Positions 3,834-27,668 are shown, counted from the stretch's first letter. The stretch is 64,000 bases of DNA from Deltaproteobacteria bacterium (GCA_038150265.1 JAYOTF010000005.1:46469-110468), one strand, 5' to 3'. Notes: generated from the letters alone by a model not told the origin. A program made the numbers and translations.

Positions 3834-3921
3834 AAGAAATTCTCCTTTGTCTCAGGTTTCCGTCGCCCCTTCCTGCCGGTCATTCATGCAGCAAGGGGCC
3901 GATCGGGGTTCAGGTTGTGGA

Positions 3922-6285
3922 TCAGGAAGCGCTGTTGATGGCAGCCCAGACCTTTTGCGGGGTCAGGGGCATGGCCAGATCGCTCACTCCCAGCGGGCGC
4001 AGCGCATCCACCACCGCGTTCACAATGGCCGGAGTGGAGCCGATGCAGCCGGCTTCTCCAGCACCCTTGGCACCCAGCGGGTTGTGCGGGCACGGGGTGA
4101 CGTTGCCGTCCACCTCAAAGGAGATCAGGTCATCTGCACGAGGCATGGCGTAATCCAGGAAGGTGCCGGTGGTGAGCTGACCACTTTCGTCATACACTGC
4201 GCCTTCCAGCAACGCCTGACCAATGCCCTGGGCCAGACCGCCGTGAATTTGGCCTTCCACGATCATCGGGTTGACGATGTTTCCGACGTCATCGACCGCG
4301 ACGAAGCGCTTGATGGTCGTCTTGCCGGTTTCCGGATCGACTTCCACAACGGCAATGTAGGTGCCGAAGGGGTAGGTGAAGTTGGCCGGATCATAGAAGC
4401 TGTTGAACTCGATTCCGGGCTCCAGGCCTTCCGGGAAGTTGTGCGGGACGTAGGACGCGAGGGCGACTTCGCCGAAGCTGATCGACTTGTCGGTGCCCTT
4501 CACGGTCCAGCTGCCGTCGGCAAACTCGAGGTCCTGCTCCGACGCCTCCAGGAGGTGTGCCGCCACCTTGGCGCCTTTTTCCTTCACCTTCTCCAGGGCG
4601 CCCACGATGGCGCTTCCGCCGACCGCAAGGCTCCGGGATCCGTAGGTGCCCATGCCGAAGGGGACCTGCTCGGTGTCACCGTGGATGATCTCGACGTTGC
4701 TCATGTCAATGCCAAGGTGATCGGCCACCACCTGAGCAAAGGTGGTGTCGTGTCCCTGACCGTGGGAGTGGCTTCCGGTGTAGACCGACACCATGCCGGT
4801 CGGTTGCACACGGACGTTGGCGCTCTCAAAGAGTCCGGCCCGTGCCCCGAGGGAGCCCACCACCGCCGACGGCGCGATGCCGCAGGCTTCGATGTAGGAC
4901 GAGAAGCCAATGCCGATGTAGCGGCCTTGCTTGCGGGCTTCTTCCTGCTCCTTGCGCAGCTCGTCGTAGCCGATGATGTCCAGGGCCTTGCGCATGGCTG
5001 CTTCGTAGTTGCCGCTGTCGTACTGCAGGGCCACCTGGGTCTGGTACCCCGGTTGGTCCACCCCGTCAAAGGCCGGAATGAAGTTCTTCATGCGCAGCTC
5101 CGCCGGGTCCATGCCCATCTCGGCAGCAGCGGTGTCCATGAGCCGCTCCAGCAGGTAGGTGGCTTCCGGACGTCCGGCCCCCCGGTAGGCGTCCACAGCA
5201 GTGGTGTTGGTGAACACGGCGTTCACACTGACGTACACTGCCGGTGTGGTGTACTGTCCCTGCAGCAGGGTTCCATACAGGTAGGTGGGCACTGCCGTGG
5301 AGAAGGTGGACAGGTACGCGCCAATGTTGGCATCGGTGTGCACCTTGAGCGCCGTCAGCTTGCCGTCGGCATCAAAGCCCATCTGAGCCGTGGTGTGGTG
5401 GTCGCGTCCGTGTGCATCGGTGACAAACGCTTCGCTGCGCTCGGAGGTCCACTTGATCGGGCGTCCAATCTGCTTGGAGGCCCAGGTGACGAGGGCTTCT
5501 TCGGTGTAGTGATAGATCTTGCTGCCGAAGCCGCCACCGACGTCTTTGGCCACCACACGGACCTTGTGCTCGGGAATGCCAAGCACAAAGGCACACATCA
5601 GCAGGCGAATCACGTGCGGATTCTGCGAGGACGTGTAGAGCGTGTAATTGTCGCGAGACGCGTCGTAGTCGCCGATGTAGCTGCGTGGCTCAATCGGGTT
5701 CGGCACCAGACGCTGGTTGCGGATCTTCATGGAGGTGACGTGAGCGGCTTTGGCCAGCCCTTCGTCAGCCGCCGACGCATCTCCGAGTTCCCAGTCAAAG
5801 ACGAGGTTGTCCGGAAGCTCGTCGTGCACCTTTGCTGCACCCGGCTTGAGGGCATCCACCGATTCCACCACCACGGGCAGCTCCTCGTAGTCCACTTCAA
5901 TCAGGTCTGCCGCATCACGGGCCTGAGCCTTGGTTTCGGCAATGACCACGGCCACGCTGTCGCCCACGTGTCGGACCTTGTCGTGTACCAGCAGCGGGTG
6001 CTTGGGCTCCCGCATGGTCTCTCCGCTCTTGAAGTTGACCTGCCAGCCGCAGGGCACTCCGTTGACTTCCTGGACGTCTGCTCCCGTAAAGACGGCCACC
6101 ACTCCAGGGGCTGCCTTGGCGGCAGAGGTGTCAATGCTCTTGATGCGGGCGTGAGCCAGCTGGCTGCGCAGGATGTACGCGTGCGTCATGCGGTGCAGCA
6201 CAATGTCGTCGGTGTAGGTGCCCTTTCCGGTAATAAACCGTTGGTCCTCTACCCGCTTAATCGCTTGTCCAATGTATTTGCCCAT
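3922..6285 (-). CDS. Molybdopterin-binding large subunit of a form-II CoxL-like / xanthine dehydrogenase family enzyme
   Basis: Start ATG at 6285 with AAGGAGG RBS ([22 protein letters not shown]...). Active-site loop reads AYRGAGR (form II), not AYxCSFR of bona fide CO dehydrogenases. Confidence 0.9.
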
Positions 6286-6295
6286 GAATTCCTCC

Positions 6296-6757
6296 TTATG
6301 CGGACTGGTCAGCGGCCCACTGAACGGCCTTGACGATGTTGTCGTATCCCGTGCAGCGGCAGAAGTTTCCTTCGAGCGCATGCCGGATTTCTTGTTCGGA
6401 AGGCTTGGGGTTGCGTTGGAGCAACTGCCAGGAACTCATGATCATCCCCGGGGTGCAGTAGCCACACTGCAAGCCATGCTTCTCGCGGAAGCCCTCTTGA
6501 AGGGGGTGGAGCGTTCCGTTGGAAGCCAGCCCTTCAATCGTGGTGATTTCTGCGCCATCGCACTGCACAGCCAACAGGGTGCAGGACTTGACGGATTCGC
6601 CATTGACAACAATGGTGCAGGCCCCACAGCTGCTGGTATCACAGCCAACGTGGGTGCCGGTCAAACTGAGGTTTTCGCGCAAAAACTGCACGAGCAGGGT
6701 TCGTGGCTCGACGTCTTGGGAGACAGTCGCGCCGTTGACGGTCATCGTGACTTGCAT
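6296..6757 (-). CDS. (2Fe-2S)-binding small subunit (CoxS-like)
   Basis: MQVTMTVNG start with AAGGAGGA RBS. Cys motifs CDTSSCGAC and CGYCTPG..CRCTGY. Confidence 0.9.
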
Positions 6758-6864
6758 GGTGGGTCCTCCTTCTAATTTGGGAGAGAGGGTTAAGGCGCCT
6801 CGTGAGAGCAGAAAGCGCGAATGTGATAGCACGCGGTGCTACCGAAAGTCAATGATTCCGAGTG

Positions 6865-6893
6865 TTGACACCCGAAAAGCCCTTGGCTAAGGT
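6865..6893 (+). promoter_or_regulatory. Candidate sigma-70 promoter (TTGACA-17-TAAGGT) upstream of hypothetical gene 6926
   Basis: Exact TTGACA hexamer, 17-nt spacer, weak -10. Confidence 0.25.
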
Positions 6894-6925
6894 GAGTCCG
6901 CACCTTAGACCGCACAGGAGGGTTT

Positions 6926-7354
6926 GTGACGCATCGTTACCGAAAATGGTTCTTCCTCACTGCGACCTGCTGGAGCCTGACCCTGGGAACCGGCACCGCC
7001 CAGCCGGCTTCAGGCAACACCCCTGCCGCCCAGCGGCACGCCGACTTTGCCTGGGAGCGCCTCCGGGGGTGGGAACTGCAGTCCGTGGAAGCGACCTTCG
7101 AAGGCTTCGTCTGCGTGACCACCCTCAAGGGAGGAGTCGGGTTCCGACGCAAGGTCCTCCAGCAGCAGGAGGAGGCGCGCCAGCTGTTTTCCGACCTCCG
7201 GGCCCATGCGATTGAAGCCTCTGGAAGTGTCGGGTGTGTGGTCTATGCCTCCAGTCAGGGCCGGCAGTTTGCGGAGGCGGCGGTCCGGAGCTTCCTGGAT
7301 CGGAGCAAGAGCATGGTCTACTTCTATGGGGCGGCGCCCCAGGTGCAGCCGTGA
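6926..7354 (+). CDS. Hypothetical secreted protein
   Basis: Signal-peptide-like N-terminus MTHRYRKWFFLTATCWSLTLGTGTAQP. Strong GC3 codon bias consistent with coding. No recognisable domain. Confidence 0.45.
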   Translation: MTHRYRKWFFLTATCWSLTLGTGTAQPASGNTPAAQRHADFAWERLRGWELQSVEATFEGFVCVTTLKGGVGFRRKVLQQQEEARQLFSDLRAHAIEASGSVGCVVYASSQGRQFAEAAVRSFLDRSKSMVYFYGAAPQVQP

Positions 7355-7362
7355 AGGGGCCG

Positions 7363-7935
7363 CTAGCTCCGAGGCACCGGAGCCACCGCTTCCATGGGCA
7401 ACCCGGCTGCTTCCCAGGCCTCAATTCCGTCCTTGAACCAGGCGATGTGCGAGTAGCCCATTTCGGAGACACGCTTGACGGCGTTCCAGGACATCCAGCA
7501 ATTTGCTGTGCAGTAGAACACAATCCGGACCTCCGGATCAACAGCTGTTTGCGTCCTCATGAAATCCGAAAGGTAATTGAGCCACTCGGGGAGCAAGTCG
7601 CCGTGTCCAACGTTGGGAAGCCAGTAGCTGCCCGCAATGGCACGGTGGGGCTCGTCCCAGATGAAGCGCCCACTTCGGAACAGGGTGGGCTGAACGTCCA
7701 CCAGCACCAGCGGCTTCCCGTCCTGCCGCATGGCTTCCAGTTCCGCGACATGAACGGTCGCACCGCCTTCCGCCGCTTCTGGGGTCGGAAAGCTGTAGTG
7801 CATGATCCGGTAGCCATCGATGGTGAAGTATTCGTCTTCCCAATCATCCGAGGCTCCGGTATCCTGCGACCAAGCCGTGCTGCTCAGCAGCACTACTCCT
7901 AAAACTCCCACCACGAACCGCCTCATGAAACTCAT
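7363..7935 (-). CDS. PQQ-dependent catabolism-associated CXXCW-motif protein (rhodanese-like domain)
   Basis: Signal peptide MSFMRRFVVGVLGVVLLSSTAWSQ. Motif YCTANCWMSWNAVKRV (CxxCW). Alternative start at 7926. Confidence 0.8.
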   Translation of the reverse strand: MSFMRRFVVGVLGVVLLSSTAWSQDTGASDDWEDEYFTIDGYRIMHYSFPTPEAAEGGATVHVAELEAMRQDGKPLVLVDVQPTLFRSGRFIWDEPHRAIAGSYWLPNVGHGDLLPEWLNYLSDFMRTQTAVDPEVRIVFYCTANCWMSWNAVKRVSEMGYSHIAWFKDGIEAWEAAGLPMEAVAPVPRS

Positions 7936-8485
7936 CTTTGCCTTTTTTGTGTTTGTGCTGCTTGGCACACCAGCCGTCCTCCAGGCGGAAGGAGGAACGG
8001 AAAATACGGGGGTTGCCGCCCTGAAGGCCTATGCGGTCTTCAAAATGGGACGCTACGAAGAGTCCCTGGCCATGTGGCAAGCGCTCTCGGATCAGGGCAA
8101 CACCACCGCCATGATCAACCTTGCCAACCAGTACGAAAAGGGCCTAGGGACCCCGAAGGACCTCGATCAGTCCACCTTCTGGCTCACCAGGGCGGCGGAT
8201 CTGGGAGATCCGGTGGCGCAGTTGAACCTTGGCCTGGCCTATGAAGAAGGCCTCGGGGTGGAAAAGAACAACCGCACGGCTGCTCAGTACTTCCGGAAGG
8301 CAGCGGAGCAAGGCGACCGCGACGCTCAGTTCAACCTCGGTGTGATGCTGGCCACCAATTATGGAACCGACGCTCCTCCGGATGCGACGACTGTTGCCGA
8401 GGCCCGACGCTGGCTGACGGCAGCCAAAGAGGCCCGTCATCCGGACGCCGGTACCTTCTTGCAACTGCTTCCGCAGGAGCCGTGA
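7927..8485 (+). CDS. Sel1/TPR-repeat periplasmic protein
   Basis: Signal peptide MKLIFAFFVFVLLGTPAVLQA. Repeated Sel1-like blocks (AMINLANQYEKGLGTPKDLDQSTFWLTRAADLGDPVAQLNLGLAYEEGLGVEKN...). Confidence 0.75.
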
Positions 8486-9478
8486 TCAGCCTTCGGGCAG
8501 CACCCGGACCCCCCACGGGAAGCGTCCCACCTTGATGGACTTGAGCACCTTCAGGTCCTCCACGTCAATCACCGACACATCGCCACTGACCCCGTTGGTG
8601 GTGAGCAGCCGTTTTCCGTCGGGCGTGAGGTCCATGTGCCACACGCGCCGTCCCACCAGCAGGTACTTTTCCACTTCATAGGTTTCCGTGTTGACGACGG
8701 CCACGTGGTTGGCCGGCCCCAGGGCCACAAAGGCGAGGGTCTCATCCTGGTTGAAGCGGATGCCCACGGGCTGAATGCGGTTGGGGTGGATGCCCCGGAT
8801 CTTGAAGCCGAACTCCTTGACGGGTTCCTGCGTGGCCACATCAATCACGTGAATGGTCCCGCCGATCTCAGCCGAAGCCCAGACCAGGTTGCGGGTGTGC
8901 ATGAACTCCACGTGCCGGGGACGCTGTCCCACGAGTGTGTTGTGGACCAACTCCCGGGTTTCGGTGTTGATCCAGTGCAGCATGTTGGTGGTTTCAGACG
9001 TGTTGATCGCCCACTTGCCGTCTGGACTCACCGCCATGCCTTCCGGCTCCACGCCCACGTCAATCTGAGCCAGCACCTCCCGGGTTTCAGTATCGACAAC
9101 GGTGGCAATGTTGTCGTTCTCATTGGAAATGTAGAGGTCCCGGTTGTTGGGGTGCAGGGCAAACTGTTCCGGATCCTCTCCAGAGGGCAGGTTGTGGGTG
9201 ATCGTCCGGGTGGCGACATCCAGCACCTGCACGGTGTTGTCATCGCTGGCACAGATGAACAGGTGCTTGAAGTCCTTGCTGAAGATGATGCCCCGTGGAC
9301 GCAGCCCAACGGGAATCGTTTCGACCAGCTCGAGGGTCTTGAGGTCGATGACCGACAGGGTGTTGTCCTTCTCATTGGAAACCCACGCGGTTTGAGCCAG
9401 CGTCCATCCGGCTGAGCTGAGCCCCAGCACGCCCAGCACCCCCACTTTCCAGAGCTTAATCATCGTCTTCCTCGTCAA
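8486..9478 (-). CDS. PQQ-dependent catabolism-associated beta-propeller protein (YVTN repeat family)
   Basis: Signal peptide followed by repeated blocks: VSNEKDNTLSVIDLKTLELVETIPVG, YISNENDNIATVVDTETREV, FVALGPANHVAVVNTETYEV. Confidence 0.8.
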   Translation of the reverse strand: MTRKTMIKLWKVGVLGVLGLSSAGWTLAQTAWVSNEKDNTLSVIDLKTLELVETIPVGLRPRGIIFSKDFKHLFICASDDNTVQVLDVATRTITHNLPSGEDPEQFALHPNNRDLYISNENDNIATVVDTETREVLAQIDVGVEPEGMAVSPDGKWAINTSETTNMLHWINTETRELVHNTLVGQRPRHVEFMHTRNLVWASAEIGGTIHVIDVATQEPVKEFGFKIRGIHPNRIQPVGIRFNQDETLAFVALGPANHVAVVNTETYEVEKYLLVGRRVWHMDLTPDGKRLLTTNGVSGDVSVIDVEDLKVLKSIKVGRFPWGVRVLPEG

Positions 9479-9884
9479 ATTTGGATTTCTCTTCGTTCAG
9501 GACGCCGGCTTCAATGACGGCCTCGGCAATTCCTGCCTGGGCAACAATGCCGTCCCACGGCATGCCTGCGCGCCACTCGCCCTCATACATCGCCATGTCG
9601 GCACTGGCTTCCAGGCAGAGGCCTGAGGCAATTTCGGGATCGACCTCTTCCACCTCATCGGCTTCGACCGCCGCACAGATTTCCAGGCTTCCATAAAAGT
9701 ACCCCACGCCCTGGCCGTGAGGGACCCCGTCCTGGTCCTCTCCTTCGTACTCGGCCAGGTAGGCGTCCGGAAGCTCGGGTGTCCAGGTGAGGTCTTCGGT
9801 CAGGTAGAGTGAGTTGGCCAAGGTGGCTCCCGGCAGCAAACAGGTGCCCAGAAGCCCGATCAACAGAGAAGCAGTCGGTCTCAT
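9456..9884 (-). CDS. Hypothetical secreted protein with acidic C-terminus
   Basis: Start ATG overlaps upstream gene stop (ATGA coupling at 9881-9884). Signal peptide MRPTASLLIGLLGTCLLPGATLA. Ends ...EEKSKFDEEDDD. Confidence 0.5.
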   Translation of the reverse strand: MRPTASLLIGLLGTCLLPGATLANSLYLTEDLTWTPELPDAYLAEYEGEDQDGVPHGQGVGYFYGSLEICAAVEADEVEEVDPEIASGLCLEASADMAMYEGEWRAGMPWDGIVAQAGIAEAVIEAGVLNEEKSKFDEEDDD

Positions 9885-11059
9885 TGAAAGGCAGTACATT
9901 GGGATTCAGGTTGATCAAAGCCCAGGGTATCCAGCTCCGTTTTCGGGTGCAAAAACCCCTGTTGCGGAGACGTGGAAACGAGGGCACGTGGATGAACCAG
10001 CGGGATGGTCTGACGCAACTGGCCGTTCCAGGACCGGAAGTTCAGGCTCAGCCCCTTGAAGCCGGCAATCTTGAGCTGATCGCCAAGGAGGTACGTCCGG
10101 AGCGTTGTCGGGTCGGCGGCCTTGGTGCGAGTGACCGCCTCGCCGATGGCCCGCATCGCCACCCAGGCGGCATAATCCCGGGCCCGCATGTCACGGTCGG
10201 CGAGGCGCTGAAAGCGTTCCTGCAGCTGCACGGCGCCCCACTGCTCCACCACGCGGTCCCAGGTGGTGGCCACGAGTCCCTGAGTTCCCGCGACTGGGCG
10301 GGGGTCTCGGGTGTGGTAGGGCAGGTATTCGCCAAAGTCTCCGATTTCATCGGCCACGACGAGGATGTCGTACTCCTCTGGAATTTGCGTGAACAGGGGG
10401 AATTCCTGCTGCGCCAGCCGGCGCATGTCCGAGTCGAAGGTCCATTGCTTCTCGGCAACAATCTTGATGCCATACCGCTTGGCTGTCCGCTTGAGGGACG
10501 CGACGTAGAGCCGGTCGCCCGGCTTGTTTCCGGAGATGAGGAACCAGCGCTTCCACTTCATGGCAAGCAGGTACTGCCCGAGCGCATCAGTGAGCATGGC
10601 GCGGCTGGGCAGGGTGTGCAGCAGGTTGGCCTGGCACTGTTCCTCGCGGAGGGCATTTTCCGGGGCTCCCGCATTGAAAAGCAGCACATCGGAGCCGGTG
10701 GCCAATTCGGCTGCGCGTTGGGTTTCTGCCGCCGGTGCATTGAGAACCAGGTACTGGGTTCCGGAGGCAAGGACCTCCTGAACCGCAGCCTCCCAGTCTC
10801 CGCCAGTGGGAACCACGACTTCCTGCAACGTGTAGCTTTGTCCGAGAAAGCGTCCGGAGGCGAGGTTGTCCTGAATGCCAAGCCGAGCCCCCTGGAGGCC
10901 GAGGTCTTCTGGAACTTCATCCAGGTTGGAAAGCACCGGGGGGCGTTCCACTTGTTGCTCCAGGTACGTGACTGCGACCTCGAGTTTGGAGTTCGATTGC
11001 CCCCAGCCGGGAGCGGCGAGAACCATCAGAGCAGTGATCAGGAGGAGACGGAGCTTCAT
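9881..11059 (-). CDS. ABC-type periplasmic substrate-binding protein, PQQ-dependent alcohol dehydrogenase system (LivK-like fold)
   Basis: Signal peptide MKLRLLLITALMVLAAPGWGQ. About 390 aa of type-I PBP architecture. Embedded in the quinoprotein locus. Confidence 0.8.
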   Translation of the reverse strand: MKLRLLLITALMVLAAPGWGQSNSKLEVAVTYLEQQVERPPVLSNLDEVPEDLGLQGARLGIQDNLASGRFLGQSYTLQEVVVPTGGDWEAAVQEVLASGTQYLVLNAPAAETQRAAELATGSDVLLFNAGAPENALREEQCQANLLHTLPSRAMLTDALGQYLLAMKWKRWFLISGNKPGDRLYVASLKRTAKRYGIKIVAEKQWTFDSDMRRLAQQEFPLFTQIPEEYDILVVADEIGDFGEYLPYHTRDPRPVAGTQGLVATTWDRVVEQWGAVQLQERFQRLADRDMRARDYAAWVAMRAIGEAVTRTKAADPTTLRTYLLGDQLKIAGFKGLSLNFRSWNGQLRQTIPLVHPRALVSTSPQQGFLHPKTELDTLGFDQPESQCTAFQ

Positions 11060-11997
11060 TGCGGCGTCTGGATCAGAGAAAAGGTTTGGGCTTCGTATTT
11101 GGGATAAAGGTGAACCACGGAGCGTGCCAGCTCTTCCCGGAAGAGGGCAATGCTTTCAAACTCCTTGGGTGTGGGAGTTTGCATGACCTCGTTCATGTTC
11201 CGTCCCTTCATGCTGGCCCGCGCAAAGACCTCATGAAGCCACTGCAGGTGCTTCTGCGTCTGCTGGATGGGGCGGGTATCGGTGGCCGTTTCGCCATGTC
11301 CGGGCACCAGGAGGGTGAAGGGGAGCTGTTCCAACTCCTTGAGCGATTCCAGCCAGGCCGCAATCTGCGCATGCGGGGTCGCCAGGGCCCGGTTGTGGAA
11401 GACAATGTCTCCGGCAAACAGCACACCGGTGGTTTCATCAAAGATCGCCAGGTCGGCGCTCGTGTGGCCATGCAGGGCGATCAGGCGCAGGCGGTGCCCG
11501 CCAAACTCAACAGTCCCCGGAGCAAGCGTGTGTTGGGGAAGCCGCACATCGGTTCCCTGCATCGGGGCGCCGACGAGGCGGTAGAGGTTGTCCAGAAAGC
11601 CGGGGCCCTGCGTCTTGAGGCCCTCAATGGTCTTCGGAAGCGCATGGAGCTGATCGGCGTCAAAGGCCTGGTTGCCAAAGGCATGATCCGGGTGGTGGTG
11701 GGTGATCCAGACCTGCCAGATGGGCTGATCCGTCACCGTGGCAATGGCCTCCCGGAGCGCCTCGCCATAGAGCTTCGAGGGGCCGGAGTCGATCACGAGC
11801 ACCCCCTCCGGAGTGGTCACGAAGGAGATGTTGACAATGTTGCCGTGATTCTCCCGAGCGAGCCCCTCCTTTTTGCCAAACAGCACATACGTGTCCGGCG
11901 CCACCTGCTGGGGCTTGAGGTCGTAGAAGGACTTGCTCCAGCCAGGACTTGGCAGGAACAGCAGGCTGATCAGGCAGAGGCGGAGCAGCGGCATCAT
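11056..11997 (-). CDS. Quinoprotein relay system zinc metallohydrolase (MBL fold)
   Basis: Signal peptide MMPLLRLCLISLLFLPSPGWS. MBL motif WITHHHPDHAFG, plus later His/Asp ligands (HGHTSAD, GHG). Confidence 0.8.
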   Translation of the reverse strand: MMPLLRLCLISLLFLPSPGWSKSFYDLKPQQVAPDTYVLFGKKEGLARENHGNIVNISFVTTPEGVLVIDSGPSKLYGEALREAIATVTDQPIWQVWITHHHPDHAFGNQAFDADQLHALPKTIEGLKTQGPGFLDNLYRLVGAPMQGTDVRLPQHTLAPGTVEFGGHRLRLIALHGHTSADLAIFDETTGVLFAGDIVFHNRALATPHAQIAAWLESLKELEQLPFTLLVPGHGETATDTRPIQQTQKHLQWLHEVFARASMKGRNMNEVMQTPTPKEFESIALFREELARSVVHLYPKYEAQTFSLIQTPQ

Positions 11998-12800
11998 TGC
12001 ATGGGAAACTGTGAAGCCAGCAGGTCCGGAAGGCGCGTTTGGGATTCAATCACGCCTTCGACCTGGAGGCCATTGTTGTCACGGAAGGTGACCCGGTAGC
12101 CGGACTCAGCGTGGTGCGGATCCAGCGTCAGGGTGGGATTTTCCGCAACGGGCTCATGGAGGCGCAGGCGTCCGAGCAACTCGTCAGTGCTGGCCTCTCG
12201 AACTTCCACCGTTTCAATGATGAAGACGGGGATGCCGTCACTGAGTCCGGTGTCCATGGGGTGCATCAGGCGCACACGCAGGCGGTCGGTGGAGTCGTTT
12301 TCCGGCCAGACCTGTCCCCAGAGCTCGCCGTAGTGGTCCTCCCACGAGGCAATCTGCTGGCCGACGCTGGGCGTGGTGCAGCCTCCTCCTGCCGCATCGA
12401 TGTAGGCTCCACCCACGTGCCAGACGCCATCGGTGGTGCGCATGGCAGCTCGGACCACGGTGCCCTGCTGGACCTTGAGGCGTACGGAAATCGAGGGATC
12501 GGCGTGAACGGGCTCATACGAGAGGACCCGGATGATCGGGTTGAGGTCTGCCATGATCCGGACTTCCTCCACCTGGCCGTCTCCCCTCCAGTAGGCACTG
12601 ACGGGGACCTGCATGCTGTCTTCTGCAGAGGCAGGAAGCAGCACCTCTACCTGCGAGTCAAAGGCCACTGGGCCTCCGTCCAGGTGGTGCTCATGCACGT
12701 ACTCCCACATGGGGGACTGGTAGGGGTCTTCCGGGACAGCGGCCCACGCGGTCAGGCCTCCTAGCAGGGCCACCGTGGTGGCCAGGAACGATTTGATCAT
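11994..12800 (-). CDS. Quinoprotein dehydrogenase-associated SoxYZ-like carrier (SoxY-SoxZ fusion architecture)
   Basis: Secreted 268-aa protein with internal AAGGGCTTPS (SoxY-type GGCGG-like carrier-cysteine motif at the domain junction). 4-nt overlaps with both neighbours. Confidence 0.65.
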   Translation of the reverse strand: MIKSFLATTVALLGGLTAWAAVPEDPYQSPMWEYVHEHHLDGGPVAFDSQVEVLLPASAEDSMQVPVSAYWRGDGQVEEVRIMADLNPIIRVLSYEPVHADPSISVRLKVQQGTVVRAAMRTTDGVWHVGGAYIDAAGGGCTTPSVGQQIASWEDHYGELWGQVWPENDSTDRLRVRLMHPMDTGLSDGIPVFIIETVEVREASTDELLGRLRLHEPVAENPTLTLDPHHAESGYRVTFRDNNGLQVEGVIESQTRLPDLLASQFPMQ

Positions 12801-13516
12801 GCTTCCTCCTTATCAGGTGCGGAAAAGGTAAGCTCGCGACGCAACTCGGCCAGAAACTCGGCGTTTCGGTGTTCCCGAGGCTGGGTCAGGTGAGTCTCGT
12901 GTACAATGCCCCGGGCTTCCGGGCTGAAGAACAGGACTCGGTCGGCCAACTCCAGCGCCTCGTTGAGGTCGTGGGTGACAAAGAGCACCGCGCACTGGCG
13001 TTCCTCCCACAGCTCAAGGAGCAGGCGGCGGAGCAAAGCCGCGTTTTCTTCATCAAGTGAAACAAATGGCTCATCAAGCAGCAACAGGTCCGGCTGAATC
13101 GAGAACGCGCGGGCCAGCGAAACGCGACGGGCCATGCCCAGTGAGAGGTCTCCGGGATACGCCTGTCGGTAGTCGAGCAGGCCCATGCGCTTCAGGTAGC
13201 GGAGCGGGCGGTCGCTGGACCGTTCTTCCGGAGGCAGCACCAGCCGGAGGTTCTGCTCAATGGTCCGCCATGGCAGCAGCGTGGGCTCTTGAAAGACATA
13301 CGCCAGCCGCTGCTCAGGCGCTTGGTCAAAGCGGCCCTCGAAGTGCGGGTCAATGCCGGCGATGAGGTTCAAGAGGGTCGTCTTGCCACACCCGGAAGGG
13401 CCTGAGAGGGCAATGAACTCCCCTGGTGCCACGGTGATGGAAACATTTTCCAAAACCACCCGGGGAGGCTCGCCTGCGCGTCCCGGAAAGGCCTTGCGTT
13501 CCAGATCAATCTGCAA
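12797..13516 (-). CDS. ABC transporter ATP-binding protein (PQQ-ADH system transporter)
   Basis: Walker A GPSGCGKTT, signature LSLGMARRVSLARA, Walker B LLLLDEPFVSLDE. Confidence 0.9.
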   Translation of the reverse strand: MQIDLERKAFPGRAGEPPRVVLENVSITVAPGEFIALSGPSGCGKTTLLNLIAGIDPHFEGRFDQAPEQRLAYVFQEPTLLPWRTIEQNLRLVLPPEERSSDRPLRYLKRMGLLDYRQAYPGDLSLGMARRVSLARAFSIQPDLLLLDEPFVSLDEENAALLRRLLLELWEERQCAVLFVTHDLNEALELADRVLFFSPEARGIVHETHLTQPREHRNAEFLAELRRELTFSAPDKEEA

Positions 13517-13528
13517 CTGCCCTCACTT

Positions 13529-14281
13529 TCATGCTGGAACCGCCTTCCAGCGATTGGACCAGCGCTCAAGGGGTTGCAGGATCTGCCACTCAATCAACTG
13601 GACAACGACAATAAAAGCCGCACTGTAGGCCAGGATGCCGGCAACGTCAAATAGCTGGAAGTACGCGTGGAGCTGAAAGCCGACGCCGTTGCTGCGTCCG
13701 AGTAGCTCGACGACCAGGACGATCTTCCAGATGAGCGCCAGTCCGGAACGCGCTGCTGCGGCAAGGTAGGGAGCCAGTTGGGGCAGCAGGATGTGCCAAA
13801 AGCGGTCGGCCCAGGAGAGGCGGTAGCTGATGGCCAGCGCGTTGAACTGCGGGTTGAAGCTCCGGGCGCCTTCCCGCAGGATCACGGTGACGTTCGGGAC
13901 CTTGTTCAGGATGACGGCCAGCAACGCCGCTGCTTCCACCAGCCCCATGCTGAGGTAGCAGAGAATGATGGTCACCAATGCAGGGACGTTGAGCAGGATG
14001 ACCAGCCAGAGGTCCAGAGTGGAGTTGACTCGCTCGGAGCGCCCCATGGCAACCCCGATGAGGCTTCCGGTGAACATGGCAATCACAAAGCAGATCAGCA
14101 CGCGCTTGAGGGTGATGCCGAGGTGCCACCAAAGCTCCCCGCTCTGGGCTTCTTCCCAGAGTACCTCAAGGGTCTTGCCTGGGGTGGGCAAAAACGGAAT
14201 CCACTGTCCAGAGGCAGCCAGGTGCCACGCTCCGACAATCAGCAGTAAGGATCCCCACGCACCCCAGCTATGCTGCTTCAT
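13529..14281 (-). CDS. ABC transporter permease (NitT/TauT-type)
   Basis: Six predicted TM segments, binding-protein-dependent permease fold. Confidence 0.85.
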   Translation of the reverse strand: MKQHSWGAWGSLLLIVGAWHLAASGQWIPFLPTPGKTLEVLWEEAQSGELWWHLGITLKRVLICFVIAMFTGSLIGVAMGRSERVNSTLDLWLVILLNVPALVTIILCYLSMGLVEAAALLAVILNKVPNVTVILREGARSFNPQFNALAISYRLSWADRFWHILLPQLAPYLAAAARSGLALIWKIVLVVELLGRSNGVGFQLHAYFQLFDVAGILAYSAAFIVVVQLIEWQILQPLERWSNRWKAVPA

Positions 14282-15261
14282 GACTCGACGTCAGCCACTC
14301 CCCAGAAGGTGCCTTCGGCCAGCTGCGTGCTGTCGCCAATGAGCTTCTTGCCACCCAGTTTTCCCAAAATCCGGAAGAGCTTTTTGGCATCCCGGACCCC
14401 GGCTGCTGTGACGGGTTGGGGGGTGCCTTCGAGGTAACCCCGCTTGAGCTGCTCAAATTCCGCATCGTTCCTGGTTCCCATCTTGGGACGGAGCGAAGTC
14501 CAGGCGTCCGGATTGCGAGCGAGCAGGTCCTTGGCGCTGGTGGAGGCCTGAACCATCCCGGCGACTGCTTCAGGGTTGGCCTTGGCCCAGTCTTCCATGA
14601 AGATGTACCCCAGCATCGGCACCTGCTCCGTGATGCCAAGCTGAGGAGCAACGTCGGTCAGGTTCATCAGGCGCTTCATGCCGGCCGCCTCAAGCTTGGC
14701 GGCAAAGTGCCAGTAGGTGATCACGGCGTCGACGCGTCCAGCCTGCAGCTCCTTGCTCAGCAGCGGCGGTGCGCCAAAGACCTTCTCGATGGAATTGAGA
14801 TCCAGGTTGTCCTGCTGCCCAAGGGCCTGCAGCATGAGCCAGCCCTTGGAGAGGGCGCCACCGACCACTCCGAGCTTCTTCCCTTCGAGGTCCTTGACGG
14901 AGGTGATGCCCGAGTCCGGACGGATCATCAGGCCACCGACCGAGGACGAGTAGGGGACAAAGCTAAAGGCGTGGCCCTGGTCGCGCATCCGGGAAACCCA
15001 CATCCAGTCGGCAACCGCAACATCGGCAGCGCCCTGCTGAACGGCCATCCGGGTGGCACCAATGTCGGCGAGTTCCAGAATCTCCAACTCAATGCCGGCC
15101 TGGCGGTCCAGTCCGTTTTCCACAATGGCATTCAACTCCCAGTTGACCGTACCGGTTTTGGTACTGGCAACGCGAACCGTGGTTGCGGCGGCGGCAGAGC
15201 TCAGCAAGAGGCCTGAGACGGCAACCGCCAGAAATCGTTTAATCAGCATCGTTCTCCTCAT
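14278..15261 (-). CDS. ABC transporter substrate-binding protein (NMT1/NitT/TauT family)
   Basis: Signal peptide MLIKRFLAVAVSGLLLSSAAAA. About 320-aa periplasmic SBP immediately upstream of the permease and ATPase. Confidence 0.8.
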   Translation of the reverse strand: MRRTMLIKRFLAVAVSGLLLSSAAAATTVRVASTKTGTVNWELNAIVENGLDRQAGIELEILELADIGATRMAVQQGAADVAVADWMWVSRMRDQGHAFSFVPYSSSVGGLMIRPDSGITSVKDLEGKKLGVVGGALSKGWLMLQALGQQDNLDLNSIEKVFGAPPLLSKELQAGRVDAVITYWHFAAKLEAAGMKRLMNLTDVAPQLGITEQVPMLGYIFMEDWAKANPEAVAGMVQASTSAKDLLARNPDAWTSLRPKMGTRNDAEFEQLKRGYLEGTPQPVTAAGVRDAKKLFRILGKLGGKKLIGDSTQLAEGTFWGVADVES

Positions 15262-16202
15262 TCAGGGTTCAGGTACTCCGGAAGCCGGTAGGTCATGCCG
15301 TATTGGGCATAGATCTTCTCCATGGTGCCGTCATTCACCATTTGAGTTACCTGGTCTTCCAACGCATAGCCGAGGTCACGAGAGTCCTGCCGGACGGCCA
15401 TTCCGATGTCCCATTCGGTCCGCGGTTCAGCCATTTCGTAGGTGCACTCCGCCTCAATTTCAACTTTTGAGGTCCAGTCTTTTTTGATGTCGGGGCAGCG
15501 GATCACGCGTTGAGGAGTGAGAAGCCCGGCGAGAGGGGGCTGGAACACGTTGATGTTCTCGGTCTCCGAGAGCATGCTTTCCACAGGGCCGGATAGGCCC
15601 ATGACGGCGGCGACCTCTCCGGTGCGGAGCGCGTCCGTTGCTGCAGTCAGGTTGGGGTAGCGGACAATGCCGCGGTTGAGGCGTCCCCCAAACATGCCGG
15701 ACAGGATGAAGTCCGGAATGCTGTCCAGTTCCACACCCACCTTCTCATACATGAAGATGGCGTAATTGGGGAACGACTCAATCTTGCGGACGTCGTGCGC
15801 CAGCAAGAAGGTTTCAGACTGGTAGGGGGCCGTGATGACGACGAGCTCGTTCCGGAGGGCAAACTCCAGATCAAAGGGGATGCGGAGCATGAAGTCCGCC
15901 ACCTCCCAGTTCCGGATGGCGTTGCCTTTTCCAACAGCCACCCGCAGGTCGGCATCCACGTTTTCCCCGGCCTCATGCCAGTGCCAGCGGGGCTCCACCC
16001 CGAGCCGTCGGGCGATCTCTCGCCCAATCTCGACATCAGAGCCTCGCGGTTCCCCATTCTCCTGATAGGAAAAGGGGGGGAAGTCGGTGTACACGGCAAT
16101 GGAGATGTACCCCGACTCCATGACGTCATCCAGCAAGCGGGCACTGGCCGAACTGAGTGAGACCAGTAACGCCGCGAGGATGCAGAACGCTTTATTCCAC
16201 AT
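15258..16202 (-). CDS. Quinoprotein dehydrogenase-associated periplasmic solute-binding protein (XoxJ/MoxJ-like, SBP family 3)
   Basis: Start MWNKAFCILAALLVSLSSASA at 16202. Family-3 SBP features. Directly downstream of the cytochrome gene. Confidence 0.75.
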   Translation of the reverse strand: MWNKAFCILAALLVSLSSASARLLDDVMESGYISIAVYTDFPPFSYQENGEPRGSDVEIGREIARRLGVEPRWHWHEAGENVDADLRVAVGKGNAIRNWEVADFMLRIPFDLEFALRNELVVITAPYQSETFLLAHDVRKIESFPNYAIFMYEKVGVELDSIPDFILSGMFGGRLNRGIVRYPNLTAATDALRTGEVAAVMGLSGPVESMLSETENINVFQPPLAGLLTPQRVIRCPDIKKDWTSKVEIEAECTYEMAEPRTEWDIGMAVRQDSRDLGYALEDQVTQMVNDGTMEKIYAQYGMTYRLPEYLNPE

Positions 16203-16611
16203 GGACCGTATCCAGCCAGCTGCGGATCGCCCACATGGCTTCTTGGCTAAAGACCTCTTCAAAGGCCGGCATGTAGGTCATCCCGTTGCGGATGACCCCG
16301 TTGCGGATGCGCATCAGGAACCACTCGTCGCCTTCCATCCCCACCGGCAGCATGCGCAGGTCGGGGGCAATGCCGCCCGAGATGGCCTCAAGGCCGTGGC
16401 AGCGGGCGCAGTTTTGGTTGTAGGCCGAGGCGCCAATTTCAATGGCCCGCTCGTTTCCGCGGTAGGGGTTTTCATCCAGCCACTCGTCACCCAAAGGCTC
16501 CAGGCCACTGGTGTCGACCAACTGCGGAGTGACATCGCCATGGGAGAAAGCTGAGCCCGTCCATCCGACGAGGCCAATGAAGAGAGCAAATGCGCTAACA
16601 ATGAGTCTCAT
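16192..16611 (-). CDS. Cytochrome c550 (PedF/ExaB-type electron acceptor of the PQQ dehydrogenase)
   Basis: Signal peptide MRLIVSAFALFIGLVGWTGSAFS. Single haem motif CARCHG. About 139 aa. Confidence 0.8.
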   Translation of the reverse strand: MRLIVSAFALFIGLVGWTGSAFSHGDVTPQLVDTSGLEPLGDEWLDENPYRGNERAIEIGASAYNQNCARCHGLEAISGGIAPDLRMLPVGMEGDEWFLMRIRNGVIRNGMTYMPAFEEVFSQEAMWAIRSWLDTVHVE

Positions 16612-16714
16612 GATCCATCCAAAAATTGGGGGTTTGGAGTCTGGCAACGTGGAGGAGGCGGAGGCGGGACCGGTCATGAGCTTCCGCGTCTCCATGCTGA
16701 CGAAGGTTCCGGTG

Positions 16715-16762
16715 TCTGGGAAGAAAACCAGGGAATGAAAGGGAGGAGCCGAAGCTCCTCCC
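16715..16762 (-). terminator. Intrinsic terminator/attenuator between the PQQ dehydrogenase gene and the cytochrome gene
   Basis: On the minus-strand RNA: GGGAGGAGC-UUCG-GCUCCUCCC (9-bp GC stem, UUCG tetraloop) followed by UUUCAUUCCCUGGUUUUCUUCC. Confidence 0.55.
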
Positions 16763-16768
16763 GGGAAC

Positions 16769-18556
16769 TCAGTTGCTGCCGAGTTGCAGCGTGTCCTTCT
16801 GGTTGTTGTAGGTGCTCAGCTTCGGAAGCTTGAAGGTCCAGACCATGCCACCCTGGTTGAGGTAGTTGACGGTCTTGGCGACTTCACCGCCCCACAGCGG
16901 AACGGCTCCGCCCCATCCGGACACGACGGTGACGTACTGCTCACCGTCCATGCGCCAGGTGACGGGGGATCCGACGATTCCGGAACCGGTCTGGAACTTC
17001 CAGAGGGTCTCACCGGTCTCATCATCAACCGCCATGAATTGGCCTTCCGGAGTTCCGTAGAACACCAGTCCTCCACCCGTGGTCAGCACGCCACCCCACA
17101 GCGGAGCGTTGTTGCGCTTTTCCCACTTGATGTCACCCGTGCGGGGATCGATCGCCTTGAGGGCGCCGATGTAGTCCTCATGCAGCGGCTTGATGGTGAA
17201 GCCGGCTCCGAGGTAAGCCGCACCTTTTTTGTAGGTGACGGGCTCGTTCCAGAGGTCCATCGCCCAGGAGTTGGACGGCACGTAGAAGTTGCCGGTGCGC
17301 TGGCTGTAGGCCATCGGCATCCAGTTCTTTCCACCGAGGAAGGACGGGTAGACCACGATCGGCTCACCCTTGTCCTGGCCGGCCGGATTTCCGGGGCGCA
17401 GCTGGTTCGGAAGCGGACGGCAGTTTTCGTCCAGTCCCTCGGTCCAGTTCACTTCCACAAACGGAAGGGCGCGGATGCACTTGCCGTTCTCACGGTTGAG
17501 GACGTAGAAGTGTCCGTTTCGGTCGGCCTTGGCGCCGGCCTTGATGGTGCGACCGGTCTTGGGGTCGATGTAGTCAAAGGAGACGAACTCGTTGACGCCA
17601 TCATAGTCCCAGTGGTCATTCGGAGTGCCCTGGAAGTGCCACTTGATGACGCCGGTGTTGACGTCGATGGCGAGGGTGGAGGTGCTGTAGAGGTTGTCCC
17701 CCTTGCGCAGGTACGCGTTCCAGGGAGCCGGGTTGCCGGTTCCGAAGAAGGCGAGGCCGGTGTCCGGGTCGTAGGTGCCGCCCAGCCAGGTGGCTGCGCC
17801 GCCGAACTTCCACATTTCACCCGGCCAGGTCTTGCCTGCGGCACCACCCGTGATGCCGTTGTCCTTGCCGTTCAGGGTGCCCATGTGGCCCTCAACGGTG
17901 GGGCGGGACCAGACCAGCTCACCGGTGTTGACGTCACGAGCCTCAACTTTTCCGACAATGCCGAATTCACCCCCGGACACTCCGGTGATGACCATGCTGT
18001 TGACGACCAGCGGAGCGGCGGTGTAGGAGTACCCGGCTTTGTAGTCTCCCAGCTTCTTGCTCCAGACGACCTTCCCGGTTTTCTTGTTCAGCGCCACGAG
18101 CTTGGCATCCAGGGTGCCGAAGATCACCTTGTCTCCGCTCAGAGCGGCGCCACGGTTGACCACGTCACAGCACGGCATGATGCCGTCTGGGAGGCGAGCC
18201 TCGTACTGCCACAGCTCCTCTCCCGTCCGGGCATCGACCGCGAACAGGCGAGAGTAGGAAGCGGTGACGTACATCACGCCATCTTCGATGAGCGGCTGGG
18301 TTTCCTGTCCACGCTGCTTCTCACCGCCAAAGGAGAAGGCCCAGGCGGGGAGCAGGTTTTGGACGTTGTCCTTGTTGATGTCGGTCAGCGGACTGTAGCG
18401 CTGGCCTTGCGGTCCCAGTCCGGTCCCCAGAACGTCCTCAACGCTGTTTTGGTCATTGAGGATTTCGGCGTCCGTGGTGGCCAGAGCTGGCCCGGCTGGA
18501 AGCGCGAGGAGTGCTGCTGCGGCCAGGCCGAAGTAGCTCATGTTTCGTTTTTTCAT
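16769..18556 (-). CDS. PQQ-dependent alcohol dehydrogenase, lanthanide-dependent type (PedH/ExaF/XoxF-like)
   Basis: Signal peptide, vicinal CC ([10 protein letters not shown]), propeller W-motifs. WDYDG (catalytic Asp plus the extra Asp diagnostic of Ln coordination). 595 aa. Confidence 0.95.
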
Positions 18557-18758
18557 CGGTTGTGCCCCCGTGAAAAGGTTTTGAGTCAGTCAAAAGTGGG
18601 CAAGGTGCCCCTTGGTTTCCCTGGGAGACGCCCAAGCACCGGTCGCTCCGGAACGTCTCACCACTACCCAGAAACCCGAACCCTCGGGCTTGCAGGTACA
18701 TCCGTCCCTCCCGAAGCAGGGACTTTGACAGGGGGACAGATTAGCGCCCCCCAAGATA

Positions 18759-18775
18759 GAATGCTTGCTGCATTC
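18759..18775. promoter_or_regulatory. Palindrome GAATGC-N5-GCATTC about 200 bp upstream of the PQQ dehydrogenase start
   Basis: Perfect 6-bp arms with 5-nt spacer. No flanking U-tract, so not an intrinsic terminator. Candidate regulator site. Confidence 0.3.
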
Positions 18776-18825
18776 TCCAAAAAAATAGAAGTATTGTACC
18801 GCTCCCGGTGAGCTCATTGGCGTTT

Positions 18826-19788
18826 TCAGGCAAGCGCACGCGCCTGCTGCCGCTGGGGGTCCAGGACCCGAAACGCCTGACGCTGGCGCGCCTGGAACTG
18901 CTTCGGGGTGACGCCCTTGATGCTCTTGAAGAGGTTGATGAAGTAGCTCACTGAGGTGAAGCCCATCATGAAGCAGACCTCTGTGACCGAGTGGTCCGGG
19001 TGCTGCAGCAACTGACAGGCGCGGTCGATGCGGAGCTGGTTGATGTACTGAACGGGCGTGAAGCCGAATTCATTCTTGAAGCACCGGAAGAGGTTGGTCT
19101 TGCTCATCCCTGCGTGCTTGGCCAGTTCCTCAATGGAAATGGCGCGGTGCAGGTTCTTCTTGATGAACTCAGCCGCCTCGGAGAGGCTGTGACAGGGTGC
19201 ATGCTGGCTACTGTTCCAGAGCCACCTCGACGAGGCATCAAACTGCAGCATCCGGATCACCAGCTCCATGACCTTGACGTCAATGAGCTTGTCCCGAAGC
19301 GGGTGATTTTCGGTGAACACGGTCACCAGGTTGGCCACAATGCCTTCAATCTGGACCGAGTTGCGAAAGTGGTACTGGTTGTTCGGGTCGTAGCGCCACT
19401 CTCCCGATTCCTCTGCCCGAGGCATCTGCTCATTCATCCGTCCCACAATCTGCTGGACCTTCTGGGTGTCGATCTCCACCGTCAGGCACTTGGTCGGTTG
19501 CTCCAGCTGAGCTTCCGGGAAATCGATGTGGATTTCCTCACCGGGAGGCACCACCAGAGACTCTCCGGGCAAAAAGTCGAAGAGTGGATAGCTTTTGAAG
19601 TGGATGACCTTGCGGCCTGTGACCATGCCGCAGTACAGAGGATTGGAAGAACTGAGCGCGACCCGCTCGGCACGCTGGTAGGTGTCATAGACCGAAAACT
19701 CCGTGTCTTCGCCTCCGAAGACGGTCCGGTTCTCGATCAACTTCAACGGTTTGTGGGTCCGCTGGATGCGCTGAAGTTGTTGTTCCAT
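18826..19788 (-). CDS. AraC-family transcriptional regulator
   Basis: Start MEQQLQ at 19788 with GGAGGTG RBS. C-terminal AraC HTH (AGMSKTNLFRCFKNEFGFTPVQYINQLRIDRACQLL). Confidence 0.9.
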   Translation of the reverse strand: MEQQLQRIQRTHKPLKLIENRTVFGGEDTEFSVYDTYQRAERVALSSSNPLYCGMVTGRKVIHFKSYPLFDFLPGESLVVPPGEEIHIDFPEAQLEQPTKCLTVEIDTQKVQQIVGRMNEQMPRAEESGEWRYDPNNQYHFRNSVQIEGIVANLVTVFTENHPLRDKLIDVKVMELVIRMLQFDASSRWLWNSSQHAPCHSLSEAAEFIKKNLHRAISIEELAKHAGMSKTNLFRCFKNEFGFTPVQYINQLRIDRACQLLQHPDHSVTEVCFMMGFTSVSYFINLFKSIKGVTPKQFQARQRQAFRVLDPQRQQARALA

Positions 19789-20053
19789 GTACACCTCCGT
19801 GACCTTCCCAAGTGCGGGCCCCATGCCACTCACTTGGCGTCGGACACACTAGTGACTCGCCCTCGTCATGTCAAGCCGAACCCCCACCAGAGTCCCTATA
19901 TTTTTCCCAGCCGCCGTCGCCATTTCGCTTCCGCATTTTCCTCCTCTTTCCTACACTCTTTTTCCTGGTTCTCACGTAGGGAACCTCCTTCAGGCATTTC
20001 TGGTCGGAGCCTGGTGTTTGGAGGCCTTCCCCCATCCTCATCCTGGAGCCTGT

Positions 20054-25204: not shown

Positions 25205-25216
25205 CCTCTAAAACGA

Positions 25217-25234: not shown

Positions 25235-25249
25235 GGCCTCCAATGCTTC

Positions 25250-27665: not shown

Positions 27666-27668
27666 CCC

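Follow-up and report, generated by a model that had tools for sequence, protein, structure and literature searches.

In Pseudomonas putida KT2440, the ped genes are ordered pedE-pedF-pedG-PP_2677-PP_2678-pedH and PP_2666-pedC-pedB-pedA2-pedA1. A 2026 review of this cluster describes PP_2666 as a rhodanese, PP_2677 as a SoxYZ-like carrier, and PP_2678 as a SoxH/quinoprotein relay hydrolase. According to that review, this trio is not present in P. aeruginosa, while in M. extorquens a thioredoxin-like gene is co-transcribed with it; the hypotheses offered for the trio are enzyme maturation or redox control, or protection of the cofactor pyrroloquinoline quinone (PQQ). A 2024 study of Ca. Thiodiazotropha (mSystems) reported 'soxYZ-S2' fusions beside a PQQ alcohol dehydrogenase (ADH), soxH, and a rhodanese gene, and argued for a carbon and not a sulfur role; it also cites a proposal for Sulfurimonas CVO in which sulfate can be freed from SoxY by SoxH. 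The Dahl group assigned the Sox(YZ)/SoxH cluster of Hyphomicrobium to alcohol catabolism and found that thiosulfate does not regulate the neighboring pmpAB genes. PedA1A2BC, homologous to the Lut system, is needed for lanthanide-dependent growth at nanomolar La3+. We analyzed a stretch of 64,000 nucleotides from a Deltaproteobacteria bacterium (GCA_038150265.1, JAYOTF010000005.1:46469-110468; hereafter the window), in which positions 6926-18556 hold a lanthanide-type ADH, the trio, and a set of further secreted proteins. All positions given below are those of the window.

This cluster is a further example of the described ped-type cluster, with lineage variations: a NitT/TauT-type importer in place of PedBC, an orphan acidic protein, a Sel1-repeat protein, and an AraC-type regulator. 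The interval contains 15 real genes, 13 of them on the minus strand. Gene families were scored against NCBIfam models, given here as bits/curated cut-off, and against Pfam; signal peptides were assessed by eye only. Seven minus-strand ORFs exceed the curated NCBIfam cut-offs, namely the ADH, the cytochrome c550 PedF, the SoxYZ-like carrier, the metallo-beta-lactamase-fold (MBL) hydrolase, PedA1, PedA2, and a rhodanese-like protein with the motif C-x3-C-W (the CX3CW protein). An earlier reading made from the DNA alone (the sequence-only reading) had proposed a lanthanide-type PQQ-ADH locus with a SoxYZ-like carrier, a periplasmic MBL, a CXXCW protein, and a YVTN propeller, and the scores of the five accessory ORFs and PedF bear it out; those of the MBL (TIGR04558) and the propeller (TIGR03866) are in Table 1. 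It counted two solute-binding proteins and omitted a third, the PedA1-type protein. It also held that the set was known only from comparative family models. However, the same genes in the KT2440 ped cluster, Ca. Thiodiazotropha, and Hyphomicrobium were discussed in print between 2024 and 2026, and for the PedA1 and PedA2 homologues in PedA1A2BC/Lut there is genetic evidence for lanthanide uptake. Its statement that the substrate of the trio is experimentally uncharacterized agrees with the literature.

By its sequence, the ADH is a PedH/ExaF-type PQQ alcohol dehydrogenase predicted to depend on lanthanides. Lanthanide-type enzymes are marked by an extra aspartate two residues past the catalytic aspartate (D-x-D), where Ca-type enzymes have D-x-S/A. 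The window ADH carries the lanthanide signature, as WDYDG at residue 316; the segment of P. putida PedH (6ZCW) that aligns with it is WDFDG, whereas Ca-type ADHs next to the carrier in other loci read WDFSG. PedH 6ZCW is also the best match in the PDB, at 857 bits as against 656 bits for the Ca-dependent ExaA. The vicinal cysteine pair is present, as PCCD at residue 128.

The carrier is a fusion of SoxY-like and SoxZ-like parts whose sole cysteine, Cys141, lies in an invariant AAGGGCTxPS loop; the internal GGGC motif of the sequence-only reading is therefore real. Cys141 is invariant in an alignment of 30 of 30 carrier homologues. The profile built from these sequences finds SoxY in the Thermus SoxB-SoxYZ complex (4UWQ), with Cys141 aligned to the carrier cysteine. 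The AF2 model (pLDDT 87, pTM 0.82) has two confident beta-sandwich domains, one SoxY-like and one SoxZ-like, joined by a low-confidence loop (140-150) that begins at the cysteine, and in this model Cys141 is predicted to sit on a flexible glycine-rich loop. The best Foldseek matches of the model are SoxY chains. Searched for exact matches, the carrier sequence returned two short metagenome contigs and nothing else; the collection searched does not contain the source genome. The MBL encoded next to the carrier scores 400/300 with TIGR04558 but only 184/280 with the type-2 model. Its binuclear-metal site (H100xH102xD104H105, H178, D197, H234) is intact and invariant.

With one genome scanned per species, 80 loci encoding a relative of the carrier were obtained (numbered with the prefix L) and annotated by BLAST with the window proteins; synteny was counted in the 51 loci having at least 8 kb on each side. 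In all 51, the MBL and SoxYZ-like genes are direct neighbors. Of these loci, 46 have an ADH nearby that is PedH-like (at least 58% identity), 43 have cytochrome c550, 12 the propeller, and nine PedA1. The CX3CW gene occurs in 16, directly after the MBL gene in 14 of them. The 79 neighboring ADHs comprise 60 with D-[YF]-D, 12 with D-[FY]-S, and seven that are distant; PCCD is present in all 72 that are PedH/PedE-like. The conserved synteny with PedH and PedF extends over alpha-, beta-, and gammaproteobacteria. When the ORFs of all 80 loci were clustered, the recurrent extras were only regulators, a TonB-dependent receptor, an ExbB-like protein with unannotated neighbors, PedD, and a few families without assignment, and no YeeE-like or separate thioredoxin family occurred in at least seven loci. 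A side observation concerns loci L004-L006, L009, L023, L033, and L077 (Panacagrimonas, Nevskia-type), where the SoxYZ-like/MBL pair is followed by another, distant PQQ dehydrogenase. This second enzyme shares about 30% identity with the window ADH and has WGYD[VL] at the motif and CCG replacing PCCD.

The carrier could also be what is left of genuine Sox thiosulfate or sulfur oxidation, or these genes could be unrelated ones that merely lie beside an ADH. A Sox remnant would account for the Pfam SoxY and SoxZ matches and for the JGI label 'sulfur-oxidizing protein SoxY' given to homologues. However, the carrier falls far below the models for true SoxY and SoxZ equivalogs (TIGR04488 39/125, TIGR04490 23/76), and its cysteine is internal (GGGCTxPS), with no C-terminal GGCGG arm as in true SoxY. 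No SoxAX, SoxB, or SoxCD was found among the window ORFs scanned. Chance juxtaposition, for its part, leaves the conserved synteny with PedH and PedF unexplained. Family membership and synteny thus largely refute both explanations, and we regard them as extremely improbable.

The CX3CW protein has exactly two cysteines, both in the active-site loop. The motif (FYCTANCW in the window, FYCTANCWMSWN; FYC..[DN]CWMSWN among homologues) has the same spacing in 22 of 22 homologues, so the rhodanese-like family given in the sequence-only reading (TIGR03865 163/128) stands while its CXXCW spacing does not. Five loci encode a CX3CW protein that continues into a C-terminal thioredoxin-like domain (CPFC or CQFC), and the fusion from L025 scores 195/128 with TIGR03865. 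These fusions are a clue, from sequence, that would tie the rhodanese-like protein to thiol redox chemistry. A protein with two thioredoxin-like domains, encoded about 3 kb from the locus, is 31-33% identical to the fused domain and has a conserved counterpart close to the cluster in both L003 and L081. On this resemblance, it is a candidate redox partner of the CX3CW protein.

Two kinds of accessory protein precede the carrier in the gene order. For the first, the binding protein encoded after PedF, the Pfam SBP_bac_3 match covers the N-terminus only. TIGR03871 (MoxJ-like) had no match to it at E <= 1e-3, nor to the syntenic proteins of L012 and L006 at E <= 1e-5; the model is perhaps missing from the library, or the protein belongs to a different family. 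Its position and SBP_bac_3 fold agree with PedG, and a protein of 26-41% identity lies between the PedF and SoxYZ-like genes in 34 of the 51 loci. The second is an ABC transporter, which by its sequence is of the NitT/TauT type (SsuABC-like) and is not PedBC. Its permease and ATPase miss the PQQ-associated models TIGR03861 and TIGR03864 (ATPase 94/302). No PedB or PedC was found in the whole 64-kb window, where a bona fide PedC from L018 (TIGR03861 393/241) had no tblastn match. The two binding proteins and the three-gene transporter of the sequence-only reading thus exist as genes, but the transporter is of another ABC family than the PQQ-associated models named there. At 36-56% identity, the importer is seen again in about ten loci of unrelated lineages, including Thiothrix, Thiodiazotropha, Geminicoccaceae, Endozoicomonas, Salinisphaera, and Azoarcus (L008, L012, L018, L026, L027, L035, L047, L061, L069, and L076), and in about half of them it adjoins the PedB ATPase, the PedA2 propeller, or PedA1. 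Because it recurs in unrelated lineages, the NitT/TauT importer is a recurrent accessory of ped-type clusters, one without a curated family name.

The acidic secreted protein of the sequence-only reading exists (9456-9899) and has a mature form of about 118 residues with 32 D/E vs 3 K/R and a pI of about 4. It contains MORN-like YxGxW repeats, two conserved cysteines, and an EEDDD/EEEDDD tail. It has no match in Pfam, NCBIfam, or the PDB (the last at E <= 10), and, with only two strong representative clusters in a search of 1.84 billion proteins, it comes close to being an orphan. A 56% identical relative is encoded in L083 (340-825), between the MBL and PedA1 genes, and in both the window and L083 the gene adjoins PedA1. 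A putative role in binding cations (Ln3+ or Ca2+) is tempting. Its identification as a lanthanide binder like LanD/LanM stays speculation, there being no PDB relative at that threshold and almost no relatives anywhere.

Another kind of block was seen in 13-15 of the surveyed loci, which have a TonB-dependent receptor and/or an ExbB-like block with three unannotated small proteins (for example L047 11695-14395 and L071 7764-9890); such blocks plausibly serve the uptake of a chelated lanthanide. An ordinary ExbB/ExbD pair is encoded in the window at 51065-52193 on the minus strand, about 33 kb away, but the cluster itself has none.

We put at about even the chance that the locus is, as its families and gene order suggest, a ped/exa-type operon for periplasmic lanthanide-dependent alcohol oxidation with three modules, one of them a thiol-carrier relay with hydrolytic release. 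In the first module, homology shows periplasmic alcohol oxidation by the PedH-type ADH, with PedF as the electron acceptor and the protein in the PedG position as a helper alongside. The second would supply lanthanide through PedA1 and PedA2, whose counterparts in P. putida and M. extorquens are required for growth that depends on lanthanide, perhaps with the NitT/TauT importer and the acidic protein, which are put forward as possible partners because PedBC was not found. It is a smaller possibility that these four components make up a PedBC-independent route of lanthanide uptake.

The third module is proposed from the anatomy of the trio and its synteny. An adduct would form on Cys141 of the carrier, and the SoxH-like MBL would cleave it off and so regenerate the carrier. 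The CX3CW protein and its thioredoxin-like partner would keep or reset the carrier thiol in the oxidizing periplasm, as SoxS/SoxV do for SoxY. The sequence-only reading had suggested a covalent thiol-bound periplasmic intermediate, which by analogy with Sox chemistry is a reasonable idea, and in the proposal for SoxH in Sulfurimonas CVO there is a precedent for MBL action on the adduct of a carrier. The aldehyde product may be trapped on the carrier as a thiohemiacetal, PedH may oxidize this to a thioester with electrons going to PedF, and the MBL may hydrolyze the thioester to the acid. We favor this sequence among adduct chemistries because the only redox enzyme conserved with the carrier-hydrolase pair is an alcohol/aldehyde dehydrogenase; nonetheless, the specific thiohemiacetal/thioester chemistry is a tentative proposal, with the chances against it. 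The broader claim, that such clusters carry out a glutathione-independent, protein-thiol oxidation of aldehydes by a periplasmic covalent relay, and thus put the Sox carrier principle to a non-sulfur use, is more doubtful again.

Several points weigh against the three-module operon and its relay. PedE and PedH oxidize free aldehydes, and a carrier is not obviously needed. Only a Ca-type ADH is nearby in five loci, and L043, L044, and L064 carry the pair or the trio without an ADH within the flanks. In the window, an opposite-strand gene separates the CX3CW gene from the operon, and the lack of PedB and PedC there would leave the metal-supply module incomplete or working differently. The 2026 review reports minimal phenotypes on short-chain alcohols in P. 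putida RB-TnSeq, without lanthanides, and P. aeruginosa ExaA, which oxidizes alcohols without the trio genes. The literature searched holds no experiment on the trio. Finally, the nearest solved relatives of the MBL family profile are the uncharacterized MBL 8D2Z and B1 beta-lactamases, and also chlorothalonil dehalogenase, and not thioesterases.

Searched as a single sequence, the MBL has weak relatives among thioesterases, namely GloB and PqsE. As the single-sequence and profile matches disagree, we set aside the relatives of the MBL as non-discriminating between thioesterase and other chemistry. A literature search on 8D2Z returned nothing relevant.

The same parts would also suit the scavenging or repair of sulfur adducts. 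The carrier cysteine would then capture sulfite, thiosulfate, or persulfide, which would otherwise react at the electrophilic C5 of PQQ by addition or reduce the vicinal disulfide in the ADH; the MBL would hydrolyze the S-sulfonate or persulfide as SoxB does, and the rhodanese-like and thioredoxin-like proteins would move sulfane sulfur or reset the thiol. In its favor, the trio has homology to a carrier of sulfur, a hydrolase associated with Sox, and a rhodanese, and SoxH has been proposed to free sulfate from SoxY in Sulfurimonas CVO. Growth of H. denitrificans on methanol is inhibited by thiosulfate, and the protection of PQQ is a hypothesis of the 2026 review. Many of the loci come from sulfur oxidizers (Thiothrix, Thiodiazotropha, Thiolinea), and the family of the window transporter usually carries sulfonates, taurine, or nitrate. 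On the other hand, the set is also found in Pseudomonas putida, Thauera, Aromatoleum, and Skermanella, which are not sulfur oxidizers, and the scanned window ORFs lack the Sox enzymes named above. The neighboring genes in H. denitrificans are not regulated by thiosulfate and were read by the Dahl group as alcohol catabolism, and the mSystems authors favor a carbon role. We consider the sulfur-adduct explanation unlikely.

Maturation of the enzyme is the remaining alternative: the trio may make or preserve the strained disulfide between the vicinal cysteines of the ADH, or it may aid the insertion of PQQ or lanthanide. The 2026 review favors 'enzyme maturation or redox control' and points to the association with ADHs that have adjacent cysteines. 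The survey fits, since PCCD is found in every one of the 72 PedH/PedE-like neighbors and the association is mainly with the lanthanide type (60 of 79), while the fusion of the C-x3-C protein to thioredoxin points to thiol-disulfide exchange. However, P. aeruginosa, which lacks the trio, has this disulfide in its ExaA, and apo-PedH is reportedly activated by the addition of lanthanide alone. A binuclear-metal hydrolase coupled to the carrier in all 51 loci has no obvious job in disulfide formation, and in every characterized case the SoxY-type swinging-arm cysteine is a substrate carrier. We therefore think maturation a poor prospect, and quite unlikely.

The layout of the locus is given in Table 1. 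The closest genome, L003, is a metagenome-assembled genome with identical gene order and 87-99% protein identity. Between it and the window, the substitutions at codon positions 1/2/3 are 17/14/48 for the 142-aa ORF, 10/9/63 for the Sel1 gene, 14/10/66 for the acidic gene, and 12/7/57 for the CX3CW gene; this bias to third positions indicates that all four are genuinely coding. ATGA overlaps join six junctions (binding protein/NMT1, NMT1/permease, ATPase/carrier, carrier/MBL, MBL/PedA1, and PedA1/acidic). Further overlaps of 8 nt (acidic/propeller) and 11 nt (cytochrome c/binding protein) are present, so the ten genes from the cytochrome to the propeller form a tightly packed chain. The sequence-only reading had all genes joined by 4-nt overlaps; this is correct for the six junctions and not for the Sel1, CX3CW, and 142-aa genes, the first and last of which are on the plus strand. 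By the second of the refuting conditions given with that reading, the locus is interrupted: a hairpin follows the ADH, and the opposite-strand gene precedes the CX3CW gene.

The hairpin has a 9-bp stem and a UUCG loop (GGGAGGAGC-UUCG-GCUCCUCCC), with a fold of -30.3 kcal/mol and z = -3.1, and the intergenic region that bears it separates the ADH gene from the chain running from the cytochrome to the propeller. It is kept in L003, where a C-to-T change retains a G-U pair and a T-run is not present, and it is probably a partial terminator or an mRNA-stabilizing element. The first ATG of PedF (16695) is CTG in L003. For this reason, the true start is probably Met29 (MRLIVSAF..., 16611), and the spacer between the ADH and cytochrome c genes is then about 157 nt. 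Sites found in scans for sigma-70 promoters and terminators were no commoner than in shuffled sequence, and only the hairpin after the ADH stood out. A sigma-54 promoter upstream of the ADH was rejected by eye, its spacing being wrong. An Rfam scan of 6000-20500 gave no match.

The Sel1 gene converges on the propeller gene and is placed head-to-head with the CX3CW gene, an arrangement shared by L003. As it lies on the opposite strand, the CX3CW gene is outside the overlapping chain. The likely ATGs of Sel1 and CX3CW overlap in a single CATG (7924-7927). The promoter and ribosome-binding site of each gene would then lie inside the coding sequence of the other, or else CX3CW is carried on an operon transcript that runs antisense through Sel1. 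For the 142-aa ORF, the link to the system is unproven.

Table 1. Features of the cluster and its immediate surroundings in the window; paired numbers are NCBIfam bits/curated cut-off.
Feature	Position	Strand	Family match and remarks
Secreted protein, two thioredoxin-like domains (CPYC, CEDC)	21590-22657	-	Pfam Thioredoxin_2; without NCBIfam name
AraC-family regulator	18826-19833	-	Directly upstream of ADH; candidate regulator; conserved in L003
PedH-type PQQ alcohol dehydrogenase, 595 aa	16769-18556	-	TIGR03075 753/480
GC-rich hairpin	16741-16762	-	Just 3' of ADH stop codon
Cytochrome c550 PedF	16192-16695	-	TIGR04494 208/122; CARCH heme motif
Family-3 solute-binding-like periplasmic protein, PedG/MoxJ position	15258-16202	-	Pfam SBP_bac_3
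NMT1/SsuA-like binding protein, NitT/TauT-type ABC importer	14278-15261	-	Pfam NMT1 78.9 bits; weak SsuA_fam and taurine matches
ABC importer permease, SsuC/TauC-like	13529-14281	-	Pfam BPD_transp_1; not ABC-2/PedC
ABC importer ATPase, TauB/SsuB-like	12797-13516	-	TIGR03864 94/302
SoxY-SoxZ fusion carrier	11994-12800	-	TIGR04557 183/140; Pfam SoxY and SoxZ
SoxH-like periplasmic MBL hydrolase, 'quinoprotein relay system zinc metallohydrolase 1'	11056-11997	-	TIGR04558 400/300
PedA1/LutA-type periplasmic binding protein	9881-11059	-	TIGR03863 501/414; Pfam Peripla_BP_6
Acidic secreted protein, 142-147 aa	9456-9884/9899	-	No family
PedA2/LutB-type YVTN beta-propeller	8486-9463/9478	-	TIGR03866 507/287
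Secreted Sel1-repeat protein	7925-8485	+	Pfam Sel1 87.9 bits
Rhodanese-like C-x3-C-W protein	7363-7968	-	TIGR03865 163/128; Pfam Rhodanese
Secreted hypothetical, 142 aa	6926-7354	+	No family match; 66% identity in L003 only

Directly beside the locus, a CoxS/CoxL/CoxM-type molybdenum hydroxylase is encoded at 2979-6832 on the minus strand. Its CoxL-type large subunit scores 702/790 with the model for the glyceraldehyde dehydrogenase alpha subunit and 721/991 with that for CO dehydrogenase. In the distant Geminicoccaceae locus L018, the ADH cluster is likewise flanked by CoxL/CoxS homologues (60-62% identity) and a Sel1 protein. The hydroxylase may be an aldehyde-oxidizing partner, in the role that PedI has in P. 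putida. The rest of the window is ordinary chromosome, including 24200-28322 (plus strand) and 36242-39814 (minus strand), with a phosphonate-type ABC importer and PhoU-like protein, a 1190-aa pyruvate:ferredoxin oxidoreductase, Lon, Ffh, and TrmD. Among the scanned window ORFs, neither pqq nor sox genes turned up.

No other unexplained part of lanthanide alcohol oxidation clusters is as widely conserved in alpha-, beta-, and gammaproteobacteria as the trio. Its chemistry would show whether the 'swinging-arm' principle of Sox was reused for carbon metabolism or for the protection or maturation of a PQQ enzyme. This question predates the window, and the genetically tractable P. putida KT2440, which has the same genes, is a better place to address it. 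What the window adds is a compact operon variant from an uncultured lineage, together with the synteny of carrier and hydrolase in all 51 loci and the clue of the CX3CW-thioredoxin fusion.

Compared with the ped cluster of KT2440, the window shares the PedH-type ADH, PedF, a protein in the PedG position, the carrier followed by the MBL, the rhodanese-like protein, PedA1, and PedA2. In contrast to KT2440, its cluster has no Ca-type PedE, PedI, PedS2/R2, or PedD, and PedB and PedC are missing from the 64 kb. The window instead has the NitT/TauT importer between PedG and the carrier, the AraC-type regulator, and the opposite-strand Sel1 gene. A single overlapping chain runs there from the MBL through PedA1 and the orphan acidic protein to PedA2.

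With the soxYZ-S2 loci of Ca. Thiodiazotropha and the Sox(YZ)/SoxH cluster of H. denitrificans, the window has in common a fused SoxYZ next to soxH, the PQQ-ADH, ADH accessories, and the rhodanese. Nine of the surveyed loci (L012, L025-L028, L035, L067, L074, and L082) have a gene order like these clusters, at 42-52% carrier identity. In loci of that type, the CX3CW gene comes directly after the MBL gene and is sometimes thioredoxin-fused, whereas in the window it is displaced behind PedA1, PedA2, and the opposite-strand gene.

The window shares with the Lut cluster of M. extorquens AM1 (LutA, LutB, LutE, LutF, LutD/LanM) the PedA1/LutA-type and PedA2/LutB-type proteins. The Lut cluster also encodes small periplasmic metal-binding proteins. 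Unlike Lut, the window cluster has no LutE/F (PedB/C) or TonB receptor, and its acidic protein has no detectable homology to solved structures. With the Sox system of Paracoccus pantotrophus, it shares the carrier fold, an aligned carrier cysteine, an MBL of the SoxH kind, and, as proposed, a cycle in which an adduct forms and is hydrolyzed off and the carrier is reactivated by a thioredoxin-type protein. In contrast to that system, the window carrier is one fused polypeptide with an internal GGGC-T-x-P-S, and its redox partner would be an alcohol dehydrogenase. Glutathione-dependent formaldehyde oxidation and glyoxalase II are mechanistic analogues only; the logic of thiohemiacetal, thioester, and MBL-fold thioesterase is alike, but in the route proposed for the window the thiol would be a cysteine of a periplasmic protein and the oxidant a PQQ enzyme.

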